Shown: piece after piece, positions 42,831-52,300 of the stretch
How the letters are laid out: each line of letters starts with the position of its first letter
How positions within the stretch are numbered: position 1 is the stretch's first letter
Assembly (NCBI GenBank): GCA_023433205.1
Contig: JAEZDS010000007.1
Span: 1-54,470, forward strand
Direction of reading: 5' to 3'
Source of the DNA: Bacteroidota bacterium
GTDB taxonomy: Bacteria > Bacteroidota > Bacteroidia > B-17B0 > Aurantibacillaceae
DNA length: 54,470 nucleotides
Program-made: the position numbers and the translations under genes
The notes under the pieces: model-generated
Told to the model about the DNA's origin: nothing
Seen by the model: the letters and a program-made list of their open reading frames with translations, nothing else
Database searches by the model: none

Positions 42831-44630
42831 CTAGTGCTGAACTACGATCTTATTCACACGTTTCTCGTCGTTCAAACTGCAATTAAGACTATAAACTCCT
42901 TCTGCCAGGCCGCTCACCGGAATCGTGATGCTACATTTCCCGGCACTAATACGTTCTTGGCCGGAAAAAACACAGGTCCCGCGCGCATCATAGAGACGCA
43001 GTTGCATCTCACCGCTCTTCTTTGAAGTGAAGGTTATTGTCAACATTTCTGAAGCCGGTACGGGATAAATCCCCGCACCACTATGCCTTTCACTTTCGAT
43101 AATCCCGGTTTTAAGTCTTGCATTGCTGCCCCCGGGTACACTCGAGCCGCTGCAATCCACATGAAAAGCTGCTGTGCTGTTAAAATTGTCGTCTATTGTA
43201 AGTTCCGGATTTAGCATCGTCACATCTGGGTCTAACACAGGTGGATTCAAGGGCTGAGAGGGACCGGGGCCCTGGCTGCCTATGATGTTAATAGATTCGT
43301 TACATCCACTATAGCCATTGTAATACGCTTTTACCATATAGGTATCGGAGGTTCCGCCGCTCACATCAGTGCCGAATACCTGTATCCCGTCACCAGAGGC
43401 GGCTCCCGCGCTCGTTTTGGTGATGAAGGCCGGCCCACCACCTGCCAGGGTATATTCAAATTCGTTTTCTCCCGTACCCGCTGTGAATAAAGCTCCCGTA
43501 TGATCGAGCTTAAATACGGTCATTTGTGCCATACCTGTGCTTGTTGCACCGTAATATTCATAATCGCCAGAGGTGTTTTGCCTTTCAATGATACCAGTGA
43601 TCTCTTTATTGGTAGCAGAAGTACCAGTTATCAGTGTGTTCCAGATGATAGTGCCGGTCTGATCAACTTTTATCATCCACGAATCACCAAAACCACCAAC
43701 CGGATCGCTCACTCCACCAATCGCGAAACCAGGCCCCCCTCCCCAAGGGGAATTTGCAACAGTTAATGAAGTAAAAAACTGAGAGTTTTGGTCGCCGTAT
43801 ATCTGACATGAGCCTGGAACGTAAAAACCAGTCGCAGGATCTAGTTTCATAAAAAAACCATCAAGTCTCCTGTTCAATGAAGGATCAGGTTGATTCAGTC
43901 CCGCCACAACCAACTCAGCCGGATTAAAAGGAGATTGGAGAAGGCCATAAGGCACCAACGCTTCGTCGCATTCATATTCTAACTCCCAGTTTGTGACGAG
44001 AGTATTCAAGGAAAATCCATACATTTTTGTTTTGTTTATGTTGCTATCGTAATACGATCCCAATACTATGTAGTTTCCGGTATTCGTAACGTCTTCAATC
44101 AATAAAGGCTTACTAAGGTTCGAAGCCGACGAAGGCAATTCATAGTACTTAGTAAATGTCACCAATCCATCCACATTAAGAATCAGGAAGAAGTAGCCAC
44201 GACTGGTGTTAGCAACATTACTTACCGCACCCGCAACGGCAAAATTGGGGCCCGGAACACTAGGAGTCTGGCCTGTTTCAATTACTGAGATGCCGTGCGT
44301 GTTTTCCATTGGAACATTACTAAGCAAAACGTTATATCCATTAAAAAATGAAATGTGATAGTAAGGTGGGGTCCAACCTACTGAATACTGACCCAACTCA
44401 TCTAATTTTCTTATTTCAAAGTTGTAGTTGCCGGTGTTTGGAGTAGTTTGGTACGAGCCTATTATGTATTGATCAACAGGCATAGTGAGACCCTGGGAAG
44501 TACAGACGGCAGAGCAGACCTCATTTGGGCCGGAGGTTGTTGTTGTAGGGTACAGGTGCTGGAAGTACACTTGCGCGTTGGCGTAAAAACTACCCAACAG
44601 CATGTAGGTAAAAACACATAGTTTTTTCAT
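42831..44630 (-). CDS. T9SS type A sorting domain protein with beta-propeller-like repeats
   Basis: Signal peptide ending ANA-Q; repeats such as DGFFMKLD and DSWMIKVDQTG.IIW; C-terminal domain IYPVPA...LYDARG...GLAEGVYSL......KIVV. Confidence 0.85.
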   Translation of the reverse strand: MKKLCVFTYMLLGSFYANAQVYFQHLYPTTTTSGPNEVCSAVCTSQGLTMPVDQYIIGSYQTTPNTGNYNFEIRKLDELGQYSVGWTPPYYHISFFNGYNVLLSNVPMENTHGISVIETGQTPSVPGPNFAVAGAVSNVANTSRGYFFLILNVDGLVTFTKYYELPSSASNLSKPLLIEDVTNTGNYIVLGSYYDSNINKTKMYGFSLNTLVTNWELEYECDEALVPYGLLQSPFNPAELVVAGLNQPDPSLNRRLDGFFMKLDPATGFYVPGSCQIYGDQNSQFFTSLTVANSPWGGGPGFAIGGVSDPVGGFGDSWMIKVDQTGTIIWNTLITGTSATNKEITGIIERQNTSGDYEYYGATSTGMAQMTVFKLDHTGALFTAGTGENEFEYTLAGGGPAFITKTSAGAASGDGIQVFGTDVSGGTSDTYMVKAYYNGYSGCNESINIIGSQGPGPSQPLNPPVLDPDVTMLNPELTIDDNFNSTAAFHVDCSGSSVPGGSNARLKTGIIESERHSGAGIYPVPASEMLTITFTSKKSGEMQLRLYDARGTCVFSGQERISAGKCSITIPVSGLAEGVYSLNCSLNDEKRVNKIVVQH

Positions 44631-44814
44631 GATATTTTTATTTTAAATGAATTTGAGAACCGCTTTTTTCAGGGTGGCAGTCCAGTACATCCGCAATTGC
44701 GCTACAAACCTCTGGCTACTACAGTGAAATTCCTAGTAAATAAAATTTCCTATACGGAAAGTTTCGGCCTTTAATTTCCTATGGAGAAATTTCTCTGTTA
44801 AAATTGCACGCTGA

Positions 44815-45186
44815 TCAGTCCTCAGAATTATTGATCAACCCACGCAGCGTACTAATGATCTTATCTTTAGGCCAGGAGAGTTTAACCTCTCCTTTTTCCA
44901 ATGCATTAAATAAATCAGCGAGCGCATGAGAAAGTGGTGTAATAGAATAAGTGGGATCAAAACAGGCATCAGCAATCGCCAAAATATGTAGATGCGAAAC
45001 TCCAATCTGTTTGCCAATCATCCTGAGCTGGCTACAGGTGAAAGGCCGCAGCCCTGTGGCTTTTTTTGAGTATTCGCTTTCAGAAATGCAGAGCACATTA
45101 GCCAATAGTAATTGTTTAATGCCTCTTGCCTTTCTAAGATTTTCAACTACAATACTAAGCTTTTGATCGTATCTTGAAGGTAACAT
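44815..45186 (-). CDS. XRE/Cro-C1 helix-turn-helix protein
   Basis: LRKARGIKQ..LA..L.ISESEYSK..TG pattern. A TATTTTTG -7 box lies at 45250-45257 on the minus strand. Confidence 0.75.
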   Translation of the reverse strand: MLPSRYDQKLSIVVENLRKARGIKQLLLANVLCISESEYSKKATGLRPFTCSQLRMIGKQIGVSHLHILAIADACFDPTYSITPLSHALADLFNALEKGEVKLSWPKDKIISTLRGLINNSED

Positions 45187-46300
45187 GCGTTGAGTGTTTT
45201 ACAAGAGCAATGAGAAGAATAATTCATAATAAAGACTTTTGGTTCGATCCAAAAATAGTATTCTGAGTGATTCTGTTTGACTCAGGGGTACCTGAAGTTT
45301 AGCCTTAGGGTACCTGAAATAAATAAATGCTCAGGAAGGAGATTTCAATTTTGCGCAGGCAGCTAAAAAAGTGAAAACCGTGGTTAAGCTGCAGCGAAAA
45401 AAAATGATTGCAGGTACAAGCTTTAGTTTTCGTATCTTTAATGTGGGTTATTAAATTCGCAATTTTCTTCACTGGAATTGTCACTGCCACCCTGATTGCG
45501 CTTCTCTGCAGCGCCCCCCCTCGCCACAAGATGTTCCAGTGATGTCCCAGGTATGCCCCAGAGATGTCCCGGTATCGCCCCAGAAGTAAAGCCAGTTTCA
45601 TTCCTCGATGCTTACTGGCTTAGCAGCAGATTACCCTGGTTTCCTTTGTGCTTTATTCTGTCATAAATTGTGGCAACCGCACACCTCATCTGATCTCTGC
45701 AAATTCCGTAGTGGCTTACCAGCCTTTTGTAAAACCCAGGTAAATGTTGCAAGTGCTACAGTCACGCTTCTTTTAATGAGGGGTTCTGATCAAAAGTTCC
45801 AGTACCCCCCCACCCCTAAATCCAGTACCCTTTTTGTTGACAGCTCCATTCATTAGCAATACCTTAGTGCTGCCCAAAAAAAGAACGTTTCTTTCCCAAA
45901 TGCGGAAGCCGCCGAAAATCCAATACCAGAGTAGGCGCCATTTAACACACAATCACCATGAGTGTTTTAAAGGAAAGGGGGGTTACCGGACAAAGATGCC
46001 AGGTAAGCGGGATTTATTACTGTATACGGCACACAGCTTATGTTATACCGCTGTCAAATGGAGAAACTTTTCCTCCCTGCTCGCTGTATGGCGGTCATGC
46101 CACAACATGGATTCTCAAACAACGGGCCTGAAGACAAAAACAAAAACTAAAAAATCAAGTAGTATCGATTCAAGGAGTCGGCATTTCCATAAACCGATGG
46201 TGCAAAGCTTGTGCTGTATCGGAATTGCTTGGGCGCAAACTTACGCTTACGCCGTAGCTTCAGAGTAGGAGCACAGCGCAGGCACAACTGCACTCTCCCC

Positions 46301-46969
46301 TCAGATAATATTCACAATATTATGCTTTATCGCAAATATGGTAAGTGCATCAATGTCGCCACTTTGTATTTTCGTTACTTTCCAGATATGACTGCGGTGT
46401 CCGTCGATGGTTTTTTCGGCCTTGTTCAGCTTTTCTGCAATCCTGGCAGTAGTGTAACCAAGGCACATGTACTTTACGATCAATATTTGCATCATATTGA
46501 GTTGCAGGTCCACTCTTTGTTCCCTTATTTCATCATTTTCGCGAACCAGGTTCTGGCGAATAAGCTTATAAACCGACTCGTCAACAAATTCGCCAACGCG
46601 CTGAACAGTTTCTATCGCTTCCACAATTTTGTGGATCGGCCAGGTTTTTCCTATCACCGCCGGAAAATCTTTTTTGATGTACTGTAAGGCTAATCCTGGT
46701 TTAAAATAACCACTAAACAATATCGCTTTTACTGCAGGGAATTTTTCCTTGATCTTATGAAACGTTGCTTCTCCATCCAGTACAGGCATGTCGAGATCAA
46801 GCAGCACAATATCCACCGGCCTTTCCTTTAGTTTATTAAGAACTTCCTGCCCGTTGTCTGCAGTAAATTTTACCTCCAGATGTTTATAGCGGCCAAGCAG
46901 ATTTACCAGTCCTTCATACACTACAGGGTGGTCATCTGCGACCCCTAATGTTATCTTTTCCATGTGCAT
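46301..46969 (-). CDS. NarL/LuxR-family response regulator
   Basis: REC domain (VADDH, LLDLDMP phospho-Asp, S, K) plus a LuxR-type HTH (G.TT..IAEKL..AEKTIDGHR..I). Confidence 0.92.
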   Translation of the reverse strand: MHMEKITLGVADDHPVVYEGLVNLLGRYKHLEVKFTADNGQEVLNKLKERPVDIVLLDLDMPVLDGEATFHKIKEKFPAVKAILFSGYFKPGLALQYIKKDFPAVIGKTWPIHKIVEAIETVQRVGEFVDESVYKLIRQNLVRENDEIREQRVDLQLNMMQILIVKYMCLGYTTARIAEKLNKAEKTIDGHRSHIWKVTKIQSGDIDALTIFAIKHNIVNII

Positions 46970-46970
46970 A

Positions 46971-47801
46971 TTATTTTCCTTCTACCTCTTCATTGGTCCT
47001 GAATGGCACTTTTAACTGAATGGCTGGTTCTGCGTCCTGCTGATAGGATATGGATGCTTTAATGATACTTCCGCGGGCGTTCATTGATTTTAAACCAAGC
47101 CCTGTGCCTGCAATTAAACACTCCTGTGCCTGCATATTGCTGAATTTGCTGCCATTGTGATCAATGTTTATTTGCAGTTCATTTGCTCCCTCTGCGGCCG
47201 TAATGGTAATTTCATCGGGACGACCATGTTTAAGAAGATTATTGATTAATTCCAGACAGATCCTGTATATGTGCAGTACCTCCTGTTTTCCAAAAGTATG
47301 TTGTTTTTTCCGCCCCTCAATCACTTTGAAGGAGGCTTTGATCTTACCCGCGCAATTGAGCTGCACTATTTGATCCTCCAGCGCACTCATCAGACCTTTT
47401 TTAATTAAATAAGCAGGAACAAGGTCTGAGGCGCAATTGTTAATGGCATCACGCAATACATCAAGCTTTTCTATTTCATTTCGCAGTTTTTGGGCCTCTT
47501 CCGGCACCTTATCCTCAAGATCGAACACAATATTTTCAAGTATCTGCTTATTAACAGTGAGTTTCAGACTAATTTCGTCGTGAAGATTGTTCGCAATCCT
47601 CTCCCGCTCCTTTTCTTCTGCTTCACAGGCAGCGCTAAAACTGAGGAGTCTTTTTTCTGACTCCAGTTGTTCAATCTTTTTCCCTTTTTCGATAAGGCTC
47701 CGCCGGTACACTACTACGAACAAAATGATCCCCCAGGCCATGATAAACATCATAAGGCTGGCGAATACAATAATCAGCTCAAAGTTTGGTTCTTCAGCCA
47801 T
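46971..47801 (-). CDS. Single-TM HisKA_3 (NarX/DesK-type) histidine kinase lacking a sensor domain
   Basis: One N-terminal TM, a coiled coil, EE.ERERIA.NLHDE H-box, ELINNLLKH N-box and GTGLGL G2. Confidence 0.88.
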   Translation of the reverse strand: MAEEPNFELIIVFASLMMFIMAWGIILFVVVYRRSLIEKGKKIEQLESEKRLLSFSAACEAEEKERERIANNLHDEISLKLTVNKQILENIVFDLEDKVPEEAQKLRNEIEKLDVLRDAINNCASDLVPAYLIKKGLMSALEDQIVQLNCAGKIKASFKVIEGRKKQHTFGKQEVLHIYRICLELINNLLKHGRPDEITITAAEGANELQINIDHNGSKFSNMQAQECLIAGTGLGLKSMNARGSIIKASISYQQDAEPAIQLKVPFRTNEEVEGK

Positions 47802-48442
47802 ACAGCTCTTGAAATGAGTAAGTAAAAGACGATGGTCACAGCCAGTAAAATTGACCAGTTTACACGCGCAATTGTGCTGGAGCTTTGCGTTAAACTATCA
47901 TACAATAACACAAAAAAAGTGCTGCTGAAAAAAAGCATCACCGCAGTTATAACCAAAAAGGGTTCTGAATTCCACAGATTGGTTTCATCTAATGTTTCTT
48001 CTTTCACCATCAACAGATAATATACTCTTATAGCTAGTGCGACGAAAAAGCACCCGCTAAAGCCGTTGTAAAATAGTGAAGCCAGGCCGCTGCCAATAAA
48101 CAATAACAAGGTAAGTGTACCACATGTCACAAATATCCGTCCCAGAACTATAACAGTCCTGTCTGTGGTTTCATGAACGTTCAACCTCAGAATAATCTCG
48201 GTTATTAAAAAAAACTGCGCTATCGAGTAGCAGATATCTACTGCATCGTTCAGGAAAATAAAATGCCGCGAAAAAAAATATCCTGCCTCAGCAATAACAC
48301 AAGTAACCAAATATAGGAGAATGACCCTATGCAGCGGGTCGTTCCAGGCTGCCTTTGCACGTTGTAAAAGCAGGATCAATGGAATGAAAACAGTTGCTGC
48401 GGTACAATACGCGAATATTGGATATATGCGATCGAAAAACAC
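47774..48442 (-). CDS. Hypothetical ~7-TM membrane protein
   Basis: About 7 hydrophobic segments. The GTG start overlaps the upstream TAG (TAGTG), and the 3' end overlaps the kinase start by 28 nt. Confidence 0.8.
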   Translation of the reverse strand: MFFDRIYPIFAYCTAATVFIPLILLLQRAKAAWNDPLHRVILLYLVTCVIAEAGYFFSRHFIFLNDAVDICYSIAQFFLITEIILRLNVHETTDRTVIVLGRIFVTCGTLTLLLFIGSGLASLFYNGFSGCFFVALAIRVYYLLMVKEETLDETNLWNSEPFLVITAVMLFFSSTFFVLLYDSLTQSSSTIARVNWSILLAVTIVFYLLISRAVWLKNQTLS

Positions 48443-48762
48443 TATGAGTTCAGCGCATTCTGCACTCCCTGCATGGGTGGAGATTTCAGCGCTCTCTCTG
48501 CCAGAATCCCATGCTCCAGGTCATCCTCATTCGCCTTTACGCCGGCGATCACCAGCTGTCTTTTACCATCCTCATCCAGAGCGTGATATACTCTTATGCC
48601 CACACAATCTTGCTGAGCAAGGATGTCCTCAATAAATGACTTACTGAAGTAATGGCCAATTGTAGGATCGATAGCAGCATCTATAGTATCCCGGAAATTC
48701 CTGGTCCATTGTGAGGCAGTAGCCAGTGTTATTGTGTGATCTTCATTTCCTGTAAATGGCAT
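48442..48762 (-). CDS. Hypothetical 106-aa soluble acidic protein, first gene of the cassette
   Basis: MPFTGNEDHTITL..A.QWT.NFR...GIRVYHALDEDGKRQLVIAGV...D...KSPPM...NALNS. Start set at ATG 48762, which follows an A-rich leader; the longer ORF extension covers the repeated promoter boxes. Confidence 0.8.
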   Translation of the reverse strand: MPFTGNEDHTITLATASQWTRNFRDTIDAAIDPTIGHYFSKSFIEDILAQQDCVGIRVYHALDEDGKRQLVIAGVKANEDDLEHGILAERALKSPPMQGVQNALNS

Positions 48763-48889
48763 ATTAGTGTGGTTTAATTGGTTTCGATTCCAAAATAAAT
48801 AAAATATGTGAGCTGCGGGTAGTGTTATAATGTACTGCTTGTTGAGAGAAAACAGTAAACACTTTATCGTCAATAATTTGTCTCCTGCT

Positions 48890-49035
48890 TTCAGTACACT
48901 TAATCCAAGTTTTCCAGTACCCTTGAGGGATAAATCAAGTACCCCACAGATGACTTTTGTGAAGCCTGCGGATGCAGTGCAGGGAGCAAAGGATATTAAA
49001 ATCAGTACCTGATAATACCTGTTGAAGTACCCCAT
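48890..49035. promoter_or_regulatory. Array of five AGTAC(C) boxes phased at 22-23 bp upstream of the cassette
   Basis: AGTAC starts at 48893, 48916, 48938, 49004 and 49026 (spacings 23, 22, 66, 22). Confidence 0.6.
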
Positions 49036-49205
49036 AATTCTAAAACCTGCTTGCTGCCCCAGTGCGGTTGCCGATAAAATCTGTTAAAAGGCCAGACTCG
49101 GTGTAAACCCGCAATACCCAAACCTTTCGGTACCACGCCCGGCCCATACTTTGGGCGGCTGTCCCCGCCTTACTGCACGTGCCCCATGGCATTCGGCAAG
49201 TCCGG

Positions 49206-49238
49206 CCATAAAGGCAGGCTGCTTAGCCTGCTTTATGG
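49206..49238. other. Strong hairpin between the divergent cassette and ileS
   Basis: CCATAAA-G-GCAGGCT gctt AGCCTGC-TTTATGG: 14-bp stem with one bulge. Confidence 0.6.
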
Positions 49239-49369
49239 TCATCTGGTTCACCCTTTCAAATCCACAGGAATTTAGTAAATTCGCTCTCCTTTTTTAAAAG
49301 GGATGGGCGCTAATTTAGTCCGCGAACCACGTACGGCCTGGCTCCAATAAGATTTTGTACCGCAATTGT

Positions 49370-52300
49370 ATGAAGAAATATCCTGAATATAAGAAGCTTG
49401 ATCTTCCAGCTATCTCAAAAGAGATACAGCAAAAGTGGCAGCAGGAAGATACATTCAGGCAATCGGTTGAGAGCCGTGAAGAAAGCAAACCCTGGGTGTT
49501 CTATGAGGGACCGCCCAGCGCAAACGGCATGCCCGGTATTCACCATGTAATGTCGCGGGCCATCAAAGATATTTTCTGCCGTTTTAAAACCATGCAGGGT
49601 TTTCAGGTTAAACGTAAGGCCGGCTGGGATACGCACGGTTTGCCAATTGAACTGAGCGTGGAAAAAACACTGGGAATTACCAAGGAAGACATAGGCAACA
49701 AAGAAAGCCCCAGTTTCATCTCCGTTGAAGACTACAACAAAGCGTGCCGCCGTGAGGTGATGAAATACACCGACAAGTGGGAGGAGCTCACTCAACAGAT
49801 GGGTTACTGGGTGGACATGAGTCAGCCCTACGTTACCTATGATAACAAATACATTGAAAGCGTTTGGTGGCTCCTGGCCAATATGGCAAAAAAAGACCTG
49901 CTTTACAAAGGTTATACTATTCAGCCATATTCTCCTGCTGCGGGGACAGGCCTTTCAACACACGAATTAAACCAGCCCGGCTGTTACCGCAATGTAAAAG
50001 ACCGCACAGCCGTGGTGTTGTTTAAAGCCACCAACTTCAAAAAAGTTTCCGGCTTTAAGGGTGAGGTGTTTTTTATGGCATGGACCACCACGCCCTGGAC
50101 ACTGCCATCCAACACGGCACTAGCTGTAGGTGCAAAAATCACCTATGTACTGATTGAAACCTACAATCCGTTTAGCGGATACAGGCAGGGCGTTATTCTG
50201 GCCAAAGATCTGTCTGCTGTATATTTTCCGCCGAAAAACAAAGACCTGATTTTTGACGATTATAAACCAGGCGATAAAAACATTCCATTCCGGGAGATCA
50301 CTGAATTTCAGGGAGAAGATCTTAAAGATCTTGAATACGAACAACTGCTGAAATTTGTTCAGCCACAAGGAAAAGCCTTCAGGGTGGTTACCGGCGACTT
50401 TGTAACTACCAGCGATGGTACGGGCATAGTTCATATTGCGCCAAGTTTTGGGGCAGATGACTTTAAGGTGGCCAGGGACAATGATATTGATTCCCTTACC
50501 CTTGTTGATAAACGAGGTCGGTTTTTGCCTGAGATAAAAGATGACATCTTTTTGTATGGCGGCGAATACGTAAAAGAAGCCTTTCATACCGAGGAGGAAA
50601 AGCAGACTGAGTTTTTGAAACAGAAACTTATACTTGAAGAGAAAGGAAAAATAAAGGAGCTGAAGAACTACCTCAGTGTGGATGAGCGTATTGTTCTGAA
50701 ATTGCAGGAAGAAGGAAAGCTGTTCAAAAAAGAAACCTACGAACACAGTTATCCTCATTGCTGGCGTACCGATAAACCTGTTCTGTATTATCCGCTCGAC
50801 AGTTGGTTCATAAGATCAACCAGCATGAAGGAGCGTTTGATCAGTTTAAACAATACCATCAACTGGAAACCCGCTTCTACAGGAAGCGGTCGTTTCGGTA
50901 ACTGGCTTGAAAATCTGAACGACTGGAATTTATCGCGTTCACGTTTCTGGGGAATTCCAATCCCGATCTGGAGAAGTGATGATGGCAAAGTGCAGATAGT
51001 GATTGAAAGCGCCGAACAGCTGAAAAAGGAAATTGATAACGCAGTTGCAAAGGGAGTGATGGATGAAAATCCACTTGCCGCTTTTGAACCAGGTAATTTT
51101 TCGGATGGGAATTACACAACTTTTGATCTTCACAAACCTTACGCCGACGCAATTGTTCTTGAAAGAGACGGGCAGCGGTTGTTCAGGGAAAATGACCTCA
51201 TTGATGTTTGGTTCGACAGCGGTTCAATGCCTTATGCCCAGCTGCATTATCCCTTTGAGAACAAAGAGTTGATTGATTCAGGAAAGAGCTTTCCTGCCGA
51301 TTTTATTGCTGAGGGTGTTGACCAGACACGGGGCTGGTTTTTCACTCTTCATGCCATTGCCGCCATGAATTTCGATTCTGTGGCTTATAAAAATGTAGTA
51401 TCTAACGGTCTGGTGCTTGATAGGTTTGGGAATAAAATGAGCAAGCGCCATGGAAATACTGTTGATCCCTTTGAAACCATCAATGAATTCGGCGCGGATG
51501 CCACCCGCTGGTACATGATCTCGAATGCTGCCCCCTGGGATAACCTGAAGTTCGACAAAGAAGGTATCAGGGAGGTGCAGCGAAAACTTTTTGGCACGCT
51601 TTACAATACCTACGGCTTTTACGCCCTTTACGCCAACGTTGACAAGTTTATCATCAGCGAAAACGACATCATCCCTGTAAAAGACCGGGTAGAACTTGAT
51701 CGCTGGATCATCAGCAGGCTGCATACCCTTGTAGGTGAGGTTACCGCTTTTTATGAAAATTTTGAACCTCACCGTGCGGCAAGGGCCATTGAGGACTTTG
51801 TTGACGAGCACCTGAGCAACTGGTATGTACGTTTGTCGCGCCGCCGTTTCTGGAAGGGCGAGATGAGCAGGGATAAAAAAGCCGCGTACGAAACTTTACA
51901 CGAATGTTTGCTGGTAACTGCGCAGCTTATGAGTCCGGTTGCCCCATTTTTTGCCGACTGGTTATACTGTAACCTCACCGGTGTTCTCCGCCATGAGGCT
52001 GTAAAAAACAACACGGCTTTACAATACCCTTCTGTGCATCTCAGCTACCTTACAAAAGCTGAACCCTCAAAACAGGATGCTGATCTTGAGGAAAGAATGT
52101 TGCTGGCGCAGCAGATATCATCAATGGTACTGTCTATCCGCAAAAAGGAGAACATCAGAGTGCGTCAGCCTTTGCAGCGCATCCGCATCCCGGTGCTTGA
52201 CGAAGCCAGCGCTGAAAAGATAAGGCAGGTGCAGGAGCTGATCCTGAGCGAAGTAAATGTGAAGGAGATTGAACTCGTTGACGAGCATACTGCACAGATA

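Follow-up and report, generated by a model that had tools for sequence, protein, structure and literature searches.

What does a histidine kinase respond to when its own chain contains no sensor domain? To our knowledge, Bacteroidota and their allies commonly have sensor-less histidine kinases with a single membrane helix, and for most of these no input is known. One such kinase is encoded in the 54,470-nucleotide (nt) stretch of DNA analysed here (the window), which covers positions 1 to 54,470 of contig JAEZDS010000007.1 of a Bacteroidota bacterium (assembly GCA_023433205.1, family Aurantibacillaceae). Its gene is the third of four co-oriented open reading frames (ORFs) on the minus strand at 46301-48762, preceded by genes for a small protein and for a seven-helix transmembrane (7TM) protein and followed by a response regulator gene. 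Our analysis identifies this four-gene cassette as a real, conserved and uncatalogued input module for sensor-less kinases, for which we propose a mechanism. A full-text literature search found no published account of the cassette in the journals that it covered; one in journals outside that coverage is possible. The four genes are as follows, with lengths in amino acids (aa).

48442..48762, minus strand: gene 1, small protein of 106 aa, starting MPFTGNEDH; acidic, leaderless, predicted alpha/beta, of an uncatalogued family
47774..48442, minus strand: gene 2, membrane protein of 222 aa with a GTG start; seven-helix, stand-alone, with very short loops
46971..47801, minus strand: gene 3, histidine kinase of 276 aa; one N-terminal helix, HisKA_3-type box, HATPase_c
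46301..46969, minus strand: gene 4, response regulator of 222 aa; receiver and probable NarL/LuxR (GerE)-type helix-turn-helix

Both the ORF calls and the sequence itself support this layout, in which the genes are tightly coupled. The junction of genes 1 and 2 reads TAGTG, the G of the gene 2 GTG being the final base of the gene 1 TAG; gene 3 overlaps the 3' end of gene 2 by 28 nt, and gene 4 starts 1 nt past the gene 3 stop. The kinase and 7TM genes also overlap in most related loci, by 22-52 nt according to first-start ORF calls, which fits coupled translation of two subunits. Together with the gene order in relatives described below, this makes the four genes one conserved unit.

The frame of gene 1 remains open for 107 further codons upstream, to 49035, and this stretch starts with a hydrophobic run. 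We considered a 197-aa long form of the small protein with this hydrophobic start and rejected it as probably not real. The first possible start coincides with the Met of the conserved N-terminal motif in 16 of 18 related loci and lies 2 codons further upstream in L011 and L014, the open frames of the 33 matches listed outside the window span 69-167 aa as opposed to 213 aa for gene 1, and a repeat array, described below, lies inside the additional stretch.

The kinase opens with a stub of ~6 residues, predicted to lie outside, followed by a single hydrophobic helix at about residues 7-31. Pfam and NCBIfam searches found no sensor domain in the chain. HisKA_3 is matched at residues 65-112 with 18.9 bits (E 0.0022), under the Pfam cut-off of 24 bits, and HATPase_c (PF02518) at residues 176-253 with 28.2 bits, over its cut-off of 26.4 bits; all 12 kinases found via the small protein, one of them truncated, exceed the HisKA_3 cut-off. 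The H74-D75 phospho-acceptor box is invariant in 49/49 aligned cassette kinases. In this set, helix position 14 is small (G/A/S) in 80% of the chains, the helix closes with a conserved F-V...Y-Q-R-K boundary, and the His box follows the helix after ~43 residues, in which no HAMP or other Pfam domain was found. On sequence grounds, the chain is built like a kinase that has to be driven through its membrane helix.

Among NCBIfam models, the kinase core aligned best to UhpB (E 1.8e-17, 63 bits against a cut-off of 408 bits) and, far under the cut-off, to LiaS (E 7.9e-12). The regulator matches Response_reg with 66 bits and GerE with 22.1 bits, the GerE cut-off being 23.5 bits, and aligns over its full length to NarL-family NCBIfam models, in every case far under their cut-offs. 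The GerE cut-off is passed by the 11 regulators of related loci, save the truncated copy at L003.

Which other chain could then supply the signal? The 7TM protein encoded immediately upstream is the obvious trans-acting input to the kinase. This role had been proposed in the preliminary description of the locus, which took the protein for a split-off receptor with a ligand or modulator that the small protein makes or gives rise to. The receptor half of that proposal is supported by the receptor-like model of the 7TM protein, by the overlap between its gene and the kinase gene and by the variety of its single-helix partners in other genomes; the ligand half fared worse, as discussed below.

The AlphaFold2 model of the 7TM protein consists of seven helices joined by very short loops (predicted local distance difference test, pLDDT, 91.3; predicted template-modelling score, pTM, 0.88). 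Lysine and arginine counts of 9.7 inside versus 2.7 outside, with the same direction of bias in 46/46 7TM proteins, place loops 1, 3 and 5 and the C-terminus inside and the N-terminus outside, as a prediction. A word-index search with the window protein returned only itself. With E<=1e-3 as the threshold, a profile search of 1.84 billion representatives recovered 10,285 clusters, counted at 50% identity, of which 4,897 reached E<=1e-10; the best 150 of the 10,285 are 188-262 aa long and are hence stand-alone proteins. The 136 7TM members examined share no common Pfam or NCBIfam family, and the 7TM profile found nothing better than E 0.35 among PDB sequences.

A Foldseek search of the 7TM model against PDB gave nothing at E<=0.001 (E 0.14 or worse), the best rows being nearly all G-protein-coupled receptors (GPCRs). 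In an exhaustive VIA-align comparison, the top 50/50 rows were GPCR- or rhodopsin-type seven-helix bundles, with Z of 11.6-13.6, a root-mean-square deviation of ~4.2 A and 195-222 aligned residues; Z values of 11-14 are common for helical bundles, and those below ~13 can reflect helical arrangement alone. These rows comprise mostly GPCRs, together with the GPCR-like domain of LYCHOS, microbial rhodopsins and designed GPCR-like folds. The ESM Atlas has a model of the window protein itself, whose look-alikes include 7TMR-DISM_7TM proteins (template-modelling (TM) scores 0.71/0.60, 203 residues) and the N-terminal seven-helix part of a GGDEF protein (TM 0.71). We regard this model-based likeness as a lead to bacterial receptor modules.

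Conservation across the 7TM family falls on Glu (helices 2, 3 and 5), Asn-Asn and His (helix 3), Tyr (helix 6) and Trp, His and two Asn (helix 7). In the model these residues occupy the outer half of the membrane down to its middle, a placement suggestive of a polar pocket that faces outward in the family. The window copy retains 4/16 of the conserved polar or aromatic positions, with 12 changed. In other genomes, 7TM genes occur as tandem duplicates ahead of one kinase (L024 768-2127, L042 1456-2893), and some genomes hold clusters of three or more 7TM paralogues (e.g., G189 contig C7).

The product of gene 1 is acidic (isoelectric point 4.8; 16 D+E versus 9 K+R), contains one Cys and has an N-terminus that is not hydrophobic. 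Neither this protein nor 22 relatives gave a Pfam or NCBIfam match, and its profile found nothing better than E 0.35 among PDB sequences. Its AlphaFold2 model (pLDDT 82.1) predicts two helices followed by three strands and a less confident tail. Foldseek found no match to this model in PDB at E<=0.001, the best VIA-align Z was 2.4, and all of its Atlas neighbours are unnamed. Our results agree with the preliminary description, which had been made from the letters of the window and their translations: the four tightly coupled co-oriented genes, the kinase with one N-terminal transmembrane segment and no sensor domain, the unannotated protein with about seven such segments and the 106-aa acidic protein without a signal peptide are all as it listed them. 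Neither input protein falls into a catalogued family, and the Foldseek check that it called for gave no characterised match at E<=0.001 for either model.

The small-protein family has a recognizable consensus (alignments A3 and A5), with a strongly conserved N-terminus (M)AFTGNEDH, an invariant core CVG(I)R.Y and a tail CPPxCG..N.LNS; the C-terminal tail and the extreme C-terminus are conserved. The CPPxC-like ending that the preliminary description had mentioned is thus the family consensus, and the window copy reads KSPPMQ, with both tail cysteines gone and Cys53 kept. The closest relatives, P0001 (75% identity) and P0002 (65%), also have Cys-less tails, and the remaining tail is conserved in them. 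The tail cysteines were also jointly lost, separately, in L074. At L026 (507-1316), two small-protein domains stand in tandem in one open frame, the first lacking one tail cysteine and the second ending in CPPWC.

As judged by eye, 12 of the 21 homologues that adjoin 7TM genes have a cleavable signal peptide, a lipobox or an N-terminal anchor immediately ahead of the domain, which would place the domain on the face that holds the 7TM N-terminus. These exported homologues belong to other classes of the phylum; the window clade is leaderless. Compared across one set of ten loci (nine in the case of the regulator), pairwise identity averages 48.7% in the small protein, 30.4% in the regulator, 25.0% in the kinase and 17.5% in the 7TM protein, and by this alignment measure the small protein is the most conserved component of the cassette. 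Complex prediction for the 7TM and small proteins (alignments A4 and A5) returned a score of 0.00 (mark 0.32), which speaks neither for nor against binding.

Two ways of linking these features of the two proteins were tried and discarded. An inverted 7TM topology, as an explanation of leaderless versus exported small proteins, was rejected since the lysine and arginine bias is the same in both groups. The idea that the tail cysteines and the 7TM polar residues were lost in step was rejected as evidence: the window and L047 fit this pattern and others do not, with L074, which has no tail cysteines, keeping 12/16 of the 7TM positions and several partners of CPPxC proteins scoring low.

How widely is this arrangement conserved? 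A word-index search with the small protein found only three relatives, one of them with a CPPxC tail. A small-protein pattern scan, with one genome per species, recovered 18 loci from records labelled Bacteroidota, Ignavibacteria, Neomarinimicrobiota and Zixibacteria. Wherever enough downstream DNA was available (14/14 loci), a multi-pass membrane ORF of ~180-220 aa follows (split in two in L017). The third gene in those 14 codes for a HisKA_3 kinase in 12 cases; in the other 2 (L004, L017) it codes for a one-component regulator of the single-helix PAS-GerE kind, and REC-GerE regulators then occur in 11 loci of this search. Within the window's own family, the small protein is present in 29/61 genomes and 9/11 genera, and the order of small protein, 7TM protein and kinase holds in 19/19 fetched loci. 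Small-protein patterns applied to viral contigs gave 65 matches, none of which was confirmed.

The membrane protein leads to the same neighbourhood. A profile of 14 membrane proteins, run against 301 Bacteroidota genomes, matched 57 of them (40/144 genera), with up to 7 copies per genome. An ORF with the small-protein domain stands beside the 7TM gene in 22/30 loci, the window locus included; at L029, L040, L043 and L048 the upstream protein was missed by the small-protein profile and has a similar Cys-Pro tail. A kinase follows the 7TM gene in 27/30 loci, recognized in 22 by the kinase profile and in 5 by Pfam as 1TM-PAS-HisKA(-REC); none follows in L023, L032 and L041. The partner encoded after the 7TM gene varies by lineage (HisKA_3, HisKA or PAS-LuxR), and most partners have a single N-terminal helix, with no helix detected in the kinases of L005 and L010.

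This gene order is far beyond chance. That small proteins precede such kinases elsewhere had been put forward in the preliminary description, together with the caution that homologues of the two small genes might rarely sit next to kinase/regulator pairs; the conserved order (14/14, 19/19 and 27/30 loci) upholds the former and answers the latter. By these counts, the conserved core is the pair of small protein and 7TM protein, which would plug into whichever single-helix transmitter comes next. Beyond the four genes, no conserved neighbour was found in related loci, though extra REC-GerE genes recur nearby.

The DNA around the cassette offers a candidate for the sites of its regulator, in the form of two sets of short direct repeats.

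48893..49031, minus strand: direct-repeat array (five copies with a GTACT core, 22-23 nt steps) that lies 133-266 nt upstream of gene 1; putative operator
45801..45832, minus strand: second GGTACT pair, with starts at 45801 and 45824 (23 nt spacing), ~470-500 nt below the regulator stop

The upstream repeats start at 48893, 48916, 48938, 49004 and 49026; four read GGTACT and one TGTACT. The 3.58-Mb genome holds 1,683 GGTACT sites and only 5 same-strand pairs at 21-24 nt, 3 of which are at the cassette, and none of 20,000 random placements in the window reached 3 pairs. In own-family relatives, tandem 14-nt palindromes with a GTAC core and 23 nt spacing are located ~204 and 181 nt upstream of the small gene (L057, L061, L062, L063, L064, L071, L072 and L074). 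Exact GTACT pairs occur in 4/17 upstream regions versus 0.008 in shuffles. The NarL-type regulator probably binds the GGTACT arrays, with the operon autoregulated, and the pair at 45801/45824 possibly marks a second regulated promoter. A scan for sigma-70 promoters and terminators found such sites no more commonly than in shuffled sequence, and an Rfam search of 44500-49500 gave only a DUF805b-like match at 45902-45937, with 27.3 bits, under the gathering score of 35.6 bits.

How, then, might the four products work together? With a probability of roughly one half, we favor a three-part membrane sensor, composed of the 7TM protein, the single-helix kinase and the small protein, that feeds a two-component switch with operon feedback. 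The 7TM protein would be the sensing subunit, in keeping with its outside N-terminus, its receptor-like fold and the family polar residues in its outer half. Through lateral contact between helices, its state would reach the only membrane helix of the sensor-less HisKA_3 kinase, which may continue into the phospho-acceptor (dimerization and histidine phosphotransfer, DHp) helix ~43 residues on. The kinase would phosphorylate the NarL-type regulator, and the regulator would bind the GGTACT arrays upstream of gene 1 and below gene 4, leading to self-regulation of the operon. The small protein would act as an accessory subunit, a co-sensor or modulator of the 7TM-kinase pair, and not as a diffusible pheromone. 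The sequence work establishes gene order and coupling, conservation, domain content, the predicted folds and topology and the repeat arrays; we infer every physical contact in this scheme, as well as the direction of control, the regulator site, the compartment of the small protein and the stimulus.

Several observations weigh against this three-part sensor. The small protein of the window and its whole clade have no export signal and many relatives are exported, so that one docking mode cannot hold for all of them, barring an export route as yet unknown. The window copy departs from its family in the lost tail cysteines, the 4/16 retained 7TM positions and the sub-cut-off HisKA_3 and GerE matches. 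No fused 7TM-kinase or small-7TM forms were found among the best 150 relatives or in a word search of chains of 460-2000 aa, the range of 262-460 aa not having been specially searched, and this is weak evidence. The structural Z values of the 7TM model support a claim of shape and not one of common descent with GPCRs or with 7TMR-DISM. Finally, the repeat arrays could serve another DNA-binding protein, e.g., the helix-turn-helix (HTH) protein encoded at 44815-45186.

By analogy, the cassette would work like the two-component systems that depend on accessory proteins, and in build it resembles a 7TMR-DISM receptor kinase whose parts are divided among three chains. By the sequence features that define them, it belongs to none of these kinds. 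The 7TMR-DISM receptors (e.g., RetS/LadS-type kinases) resemble it in having a seven-helix receptor-like module that feeds a histidine kinase or another output. In those receptors, an extracytoplasmic domain precedes the helices, and DISMED, 7TM and output parts form one chain; in the cassette, the counterpart of the extracytoplasmic domain is a separate, often exported protein encoded just upstream, and the parts form three polypeptides, with the kinase adding an eighth helix. The small protein has no DISMED-like fold and is leaderless in the window, and the 222-aa 7TM protein is all helices. The likeness is structural only (Atlas TM 0.71), as 0/136 7TM family members match PF07695 at E<=0.01.

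The LiaFSR and VraTSR systems of Firmicutes, which are autoregulated, share with the cassette a HisKA_3 kinase without an extracytoplasmic sensor, a NarL-type regulator and an upstream membrane accessory gene in the operon. Unlike the kinases of those systems, which have two helices and a short loop, the cassette kinase has one helix. The cassette has two accessory genes, its phyletic range is the Fibrobacterota-Chlorobiota-Bacteroidota (FCB) group, and its accessory proteins are unrelated to LiaF and VraT, as no Pfam or NCBIfam match was found, 136 7TM and 22 small relatives included. UhpC-UhpB-UhpA of Escherichia coli is alike in combining a HisKA_3 kinase and a NarL-type regulator with a separate polytopic membrane sensor. 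UhpC is a 12-helix protein of the major facilitator superfamily (MFS), and UhpB has a multi-helix domain of its own; the cassette differs in a sensor of 7 helices with a GPCR-like fold in its model and no MFS match, a kinase with 1 helix and the extra small protein, and the UhpB model aligns to the cassette kinase core only.

What else could the small and 7TM proteins be doing? It is a doubtful proposal that they form a dedicated protein-ligand/receptor pair, the receptor being GPCR-shaped, that couples in trans to two kinase classes and to membrane-anchored one-component regulators, with thousands of variants across the FCB group. In leaderless clades such as that of the window copy, the small protein would either get to the outer face by an unknown route or transduce from receptor to kinase on the inner face.

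A circuit of the agr type, an autocrine or quorum-type loop in which the released small protein, or its C-terminal tail, serves the 7TM receptor as cognate ligand and the regulator boosts small-protein synthesis, seems unlikely. The small gene is the first in the operon, its homologues in part carry export signals or anchors (12/21, by eye), the tail and extreme C-terminus of its product are conserved, and the likely operator arrays upstream of it fit autoregulation. Against this, conservation is highest in the small protein and lowest in the putative receptor (48.7% versus 17.5%), the reverse of pheromone-receptor diversification. The small protein is also predicted to be a folded domain of ~100 aa (pLDDT 82) and not a short precursor, and it is leaderless in the window and its clade. 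No processing or export genes (AgrB- or AgrD-like, peptidase or exporter) are conserved nearby in related loci. For these reasons, the suggestion in the preliminary description that the small protein is, or yields, an agr-like ligand is not supported. The resemblance to AgrB-AgrD-AgrC-AgrA of staphylococci lies only in the four-gene layout of small protein, ~200-aa polytopic protein, kinase and regulator: the cassette has no AgrB, AgrD or LytTR match, its regulator is of the GerE type, its kinase lacks a polytopic sensor, and in place of a variable short precursor it encodes a conserved folded domain.

Rather unlikely, in our view, is a 7TM protein that acts as an enzyme or transporter monitored by the kinase, or that makes or moves a small molecule with the small protein as substrate carrier or cofactor. 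The conserved residues (E, H, N, Y and W) that lie buried in five of the helices would suit such a function, as would a very large family with several paralogues per genome, and kinases that depend on transporters have precedents in flux sensing by BceAB-BceS and in UhpC-UhpB. The best structural rows, however, are all receptor- or rhodopsin-type bundles, with no transporter or hydrolase folds, and HlyIII or MnhB matches are single and weak, in only 1/136 or 1/14 7TM members. Moreover, the window copy lacks most of the conserved polar residues, yet its frame and operon are intact.

The cysteines of the small protein raise a further alternative, that of a cytoplasmic thiol or metal sensor (with Cys53, the tail cysteines and His9 of leaderless copies as candidate residues) that modulates the kinase from inside, with the 7TM protein a mere scaffold. 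Cys53 is invariant (22/22) in the leaderless set A3, where His9 is common and the tail pair is found in every member except the window copy, P0001 and P0002; that both members of the pair disappeared together in the window clade and a second time in L074 is what would be expected of a functional pair. However, the exported relatives often replace Cys53 while retaining the tail pair, the small-protein model gave no metal- or redox-protein fold match with Foldseek or VIA-align, and the window copy is left with Cys53 only, so that the mechanism cannot operate here. We consider this sensor quite improbable.

The window copy is positioned next to ileS. No ileS stands beside the cassette in 19 own-family loci, and the cassette was not found upstream of ileS in 11/11 same-genus loci (L077-L087), where a co-oriented open frame of ~280 aa precedes ileS in most of the 11 genomes in place of the cassette. 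These same-genus loci indicate that the arrangement in the window arose by insertion or rearrangement. The cassette is patchy and occupies differing genomic places in relatives. It is very improbable that the window copy is silent or in decay, as an accessory island of recent acquisition with defunct input parts: the loss of both tail cysteines, the 12/16 changed 7TM positions, the sub-cut-off HisKA_3 and GerE matches and the position discordant with the same-genus ileS loci and with family members would fit decay, but the four frames are intact and coupled, H74-D75 is present, the receiver scores 66 bits, and the Cys-less tail, otherwise conserved, is common to P0001 and P0002, which points to a subclade that has been maintained.

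The same genome contains a second, distantly related cassette on contig C257 (L075 906-3983). It comprises a 294-aa lipoprotein-like protein with a CPPxC tail, a 7TM paralogue of 215 aa (193 columns aligned by hhalign, E 1.9e-5) and, as judged from sequence only, a single-helix HisKA_3-type kinase and a NarL-type regulator. When the lipoprotein-like protein was compared with the small-protein profile by hhalign, a 17-column tail alone aligned, with a probability of 6%.

Below the regulator gene, ~1.1 kb (45187-46300) contains no convincing ORF; it holds an 11-nt tandem repeat at 45531-45574 and several dispersed short repeats. Further on, the minus strand encodes a 123-aa protein with weak HTH_3/BetR-like matches (44815-45186) and, at 42831-44630, a 599-aa protein that carries a C-terminal sorting domain of the type IX secretion kind. 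Given the repeat pair at 45801/45824, both genes are possible candidate targets of the regulator.

For the biology of Bacteroidota and their allies, the cassette offers a concrete candidate input for a large share of the sensor-less kinases, in the form of a 7TM family of at least 10,285 clusters and its small partner. The window taken alone is of smaller value, being one divergent member that lacks the Cys pair and most conserved residues of the putative pocket. Should the proposed binding between the parts hold, a role would be assigned to many unannotated "hypothetical membrane proteins", and a modular input would be defined for HisKA_3 kinases, HisKA kinases and LuxR-type one-component regulators. 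Under the same condition, the family would provide a bacterial GPCR-like bundle that signals via lateral helix contact.

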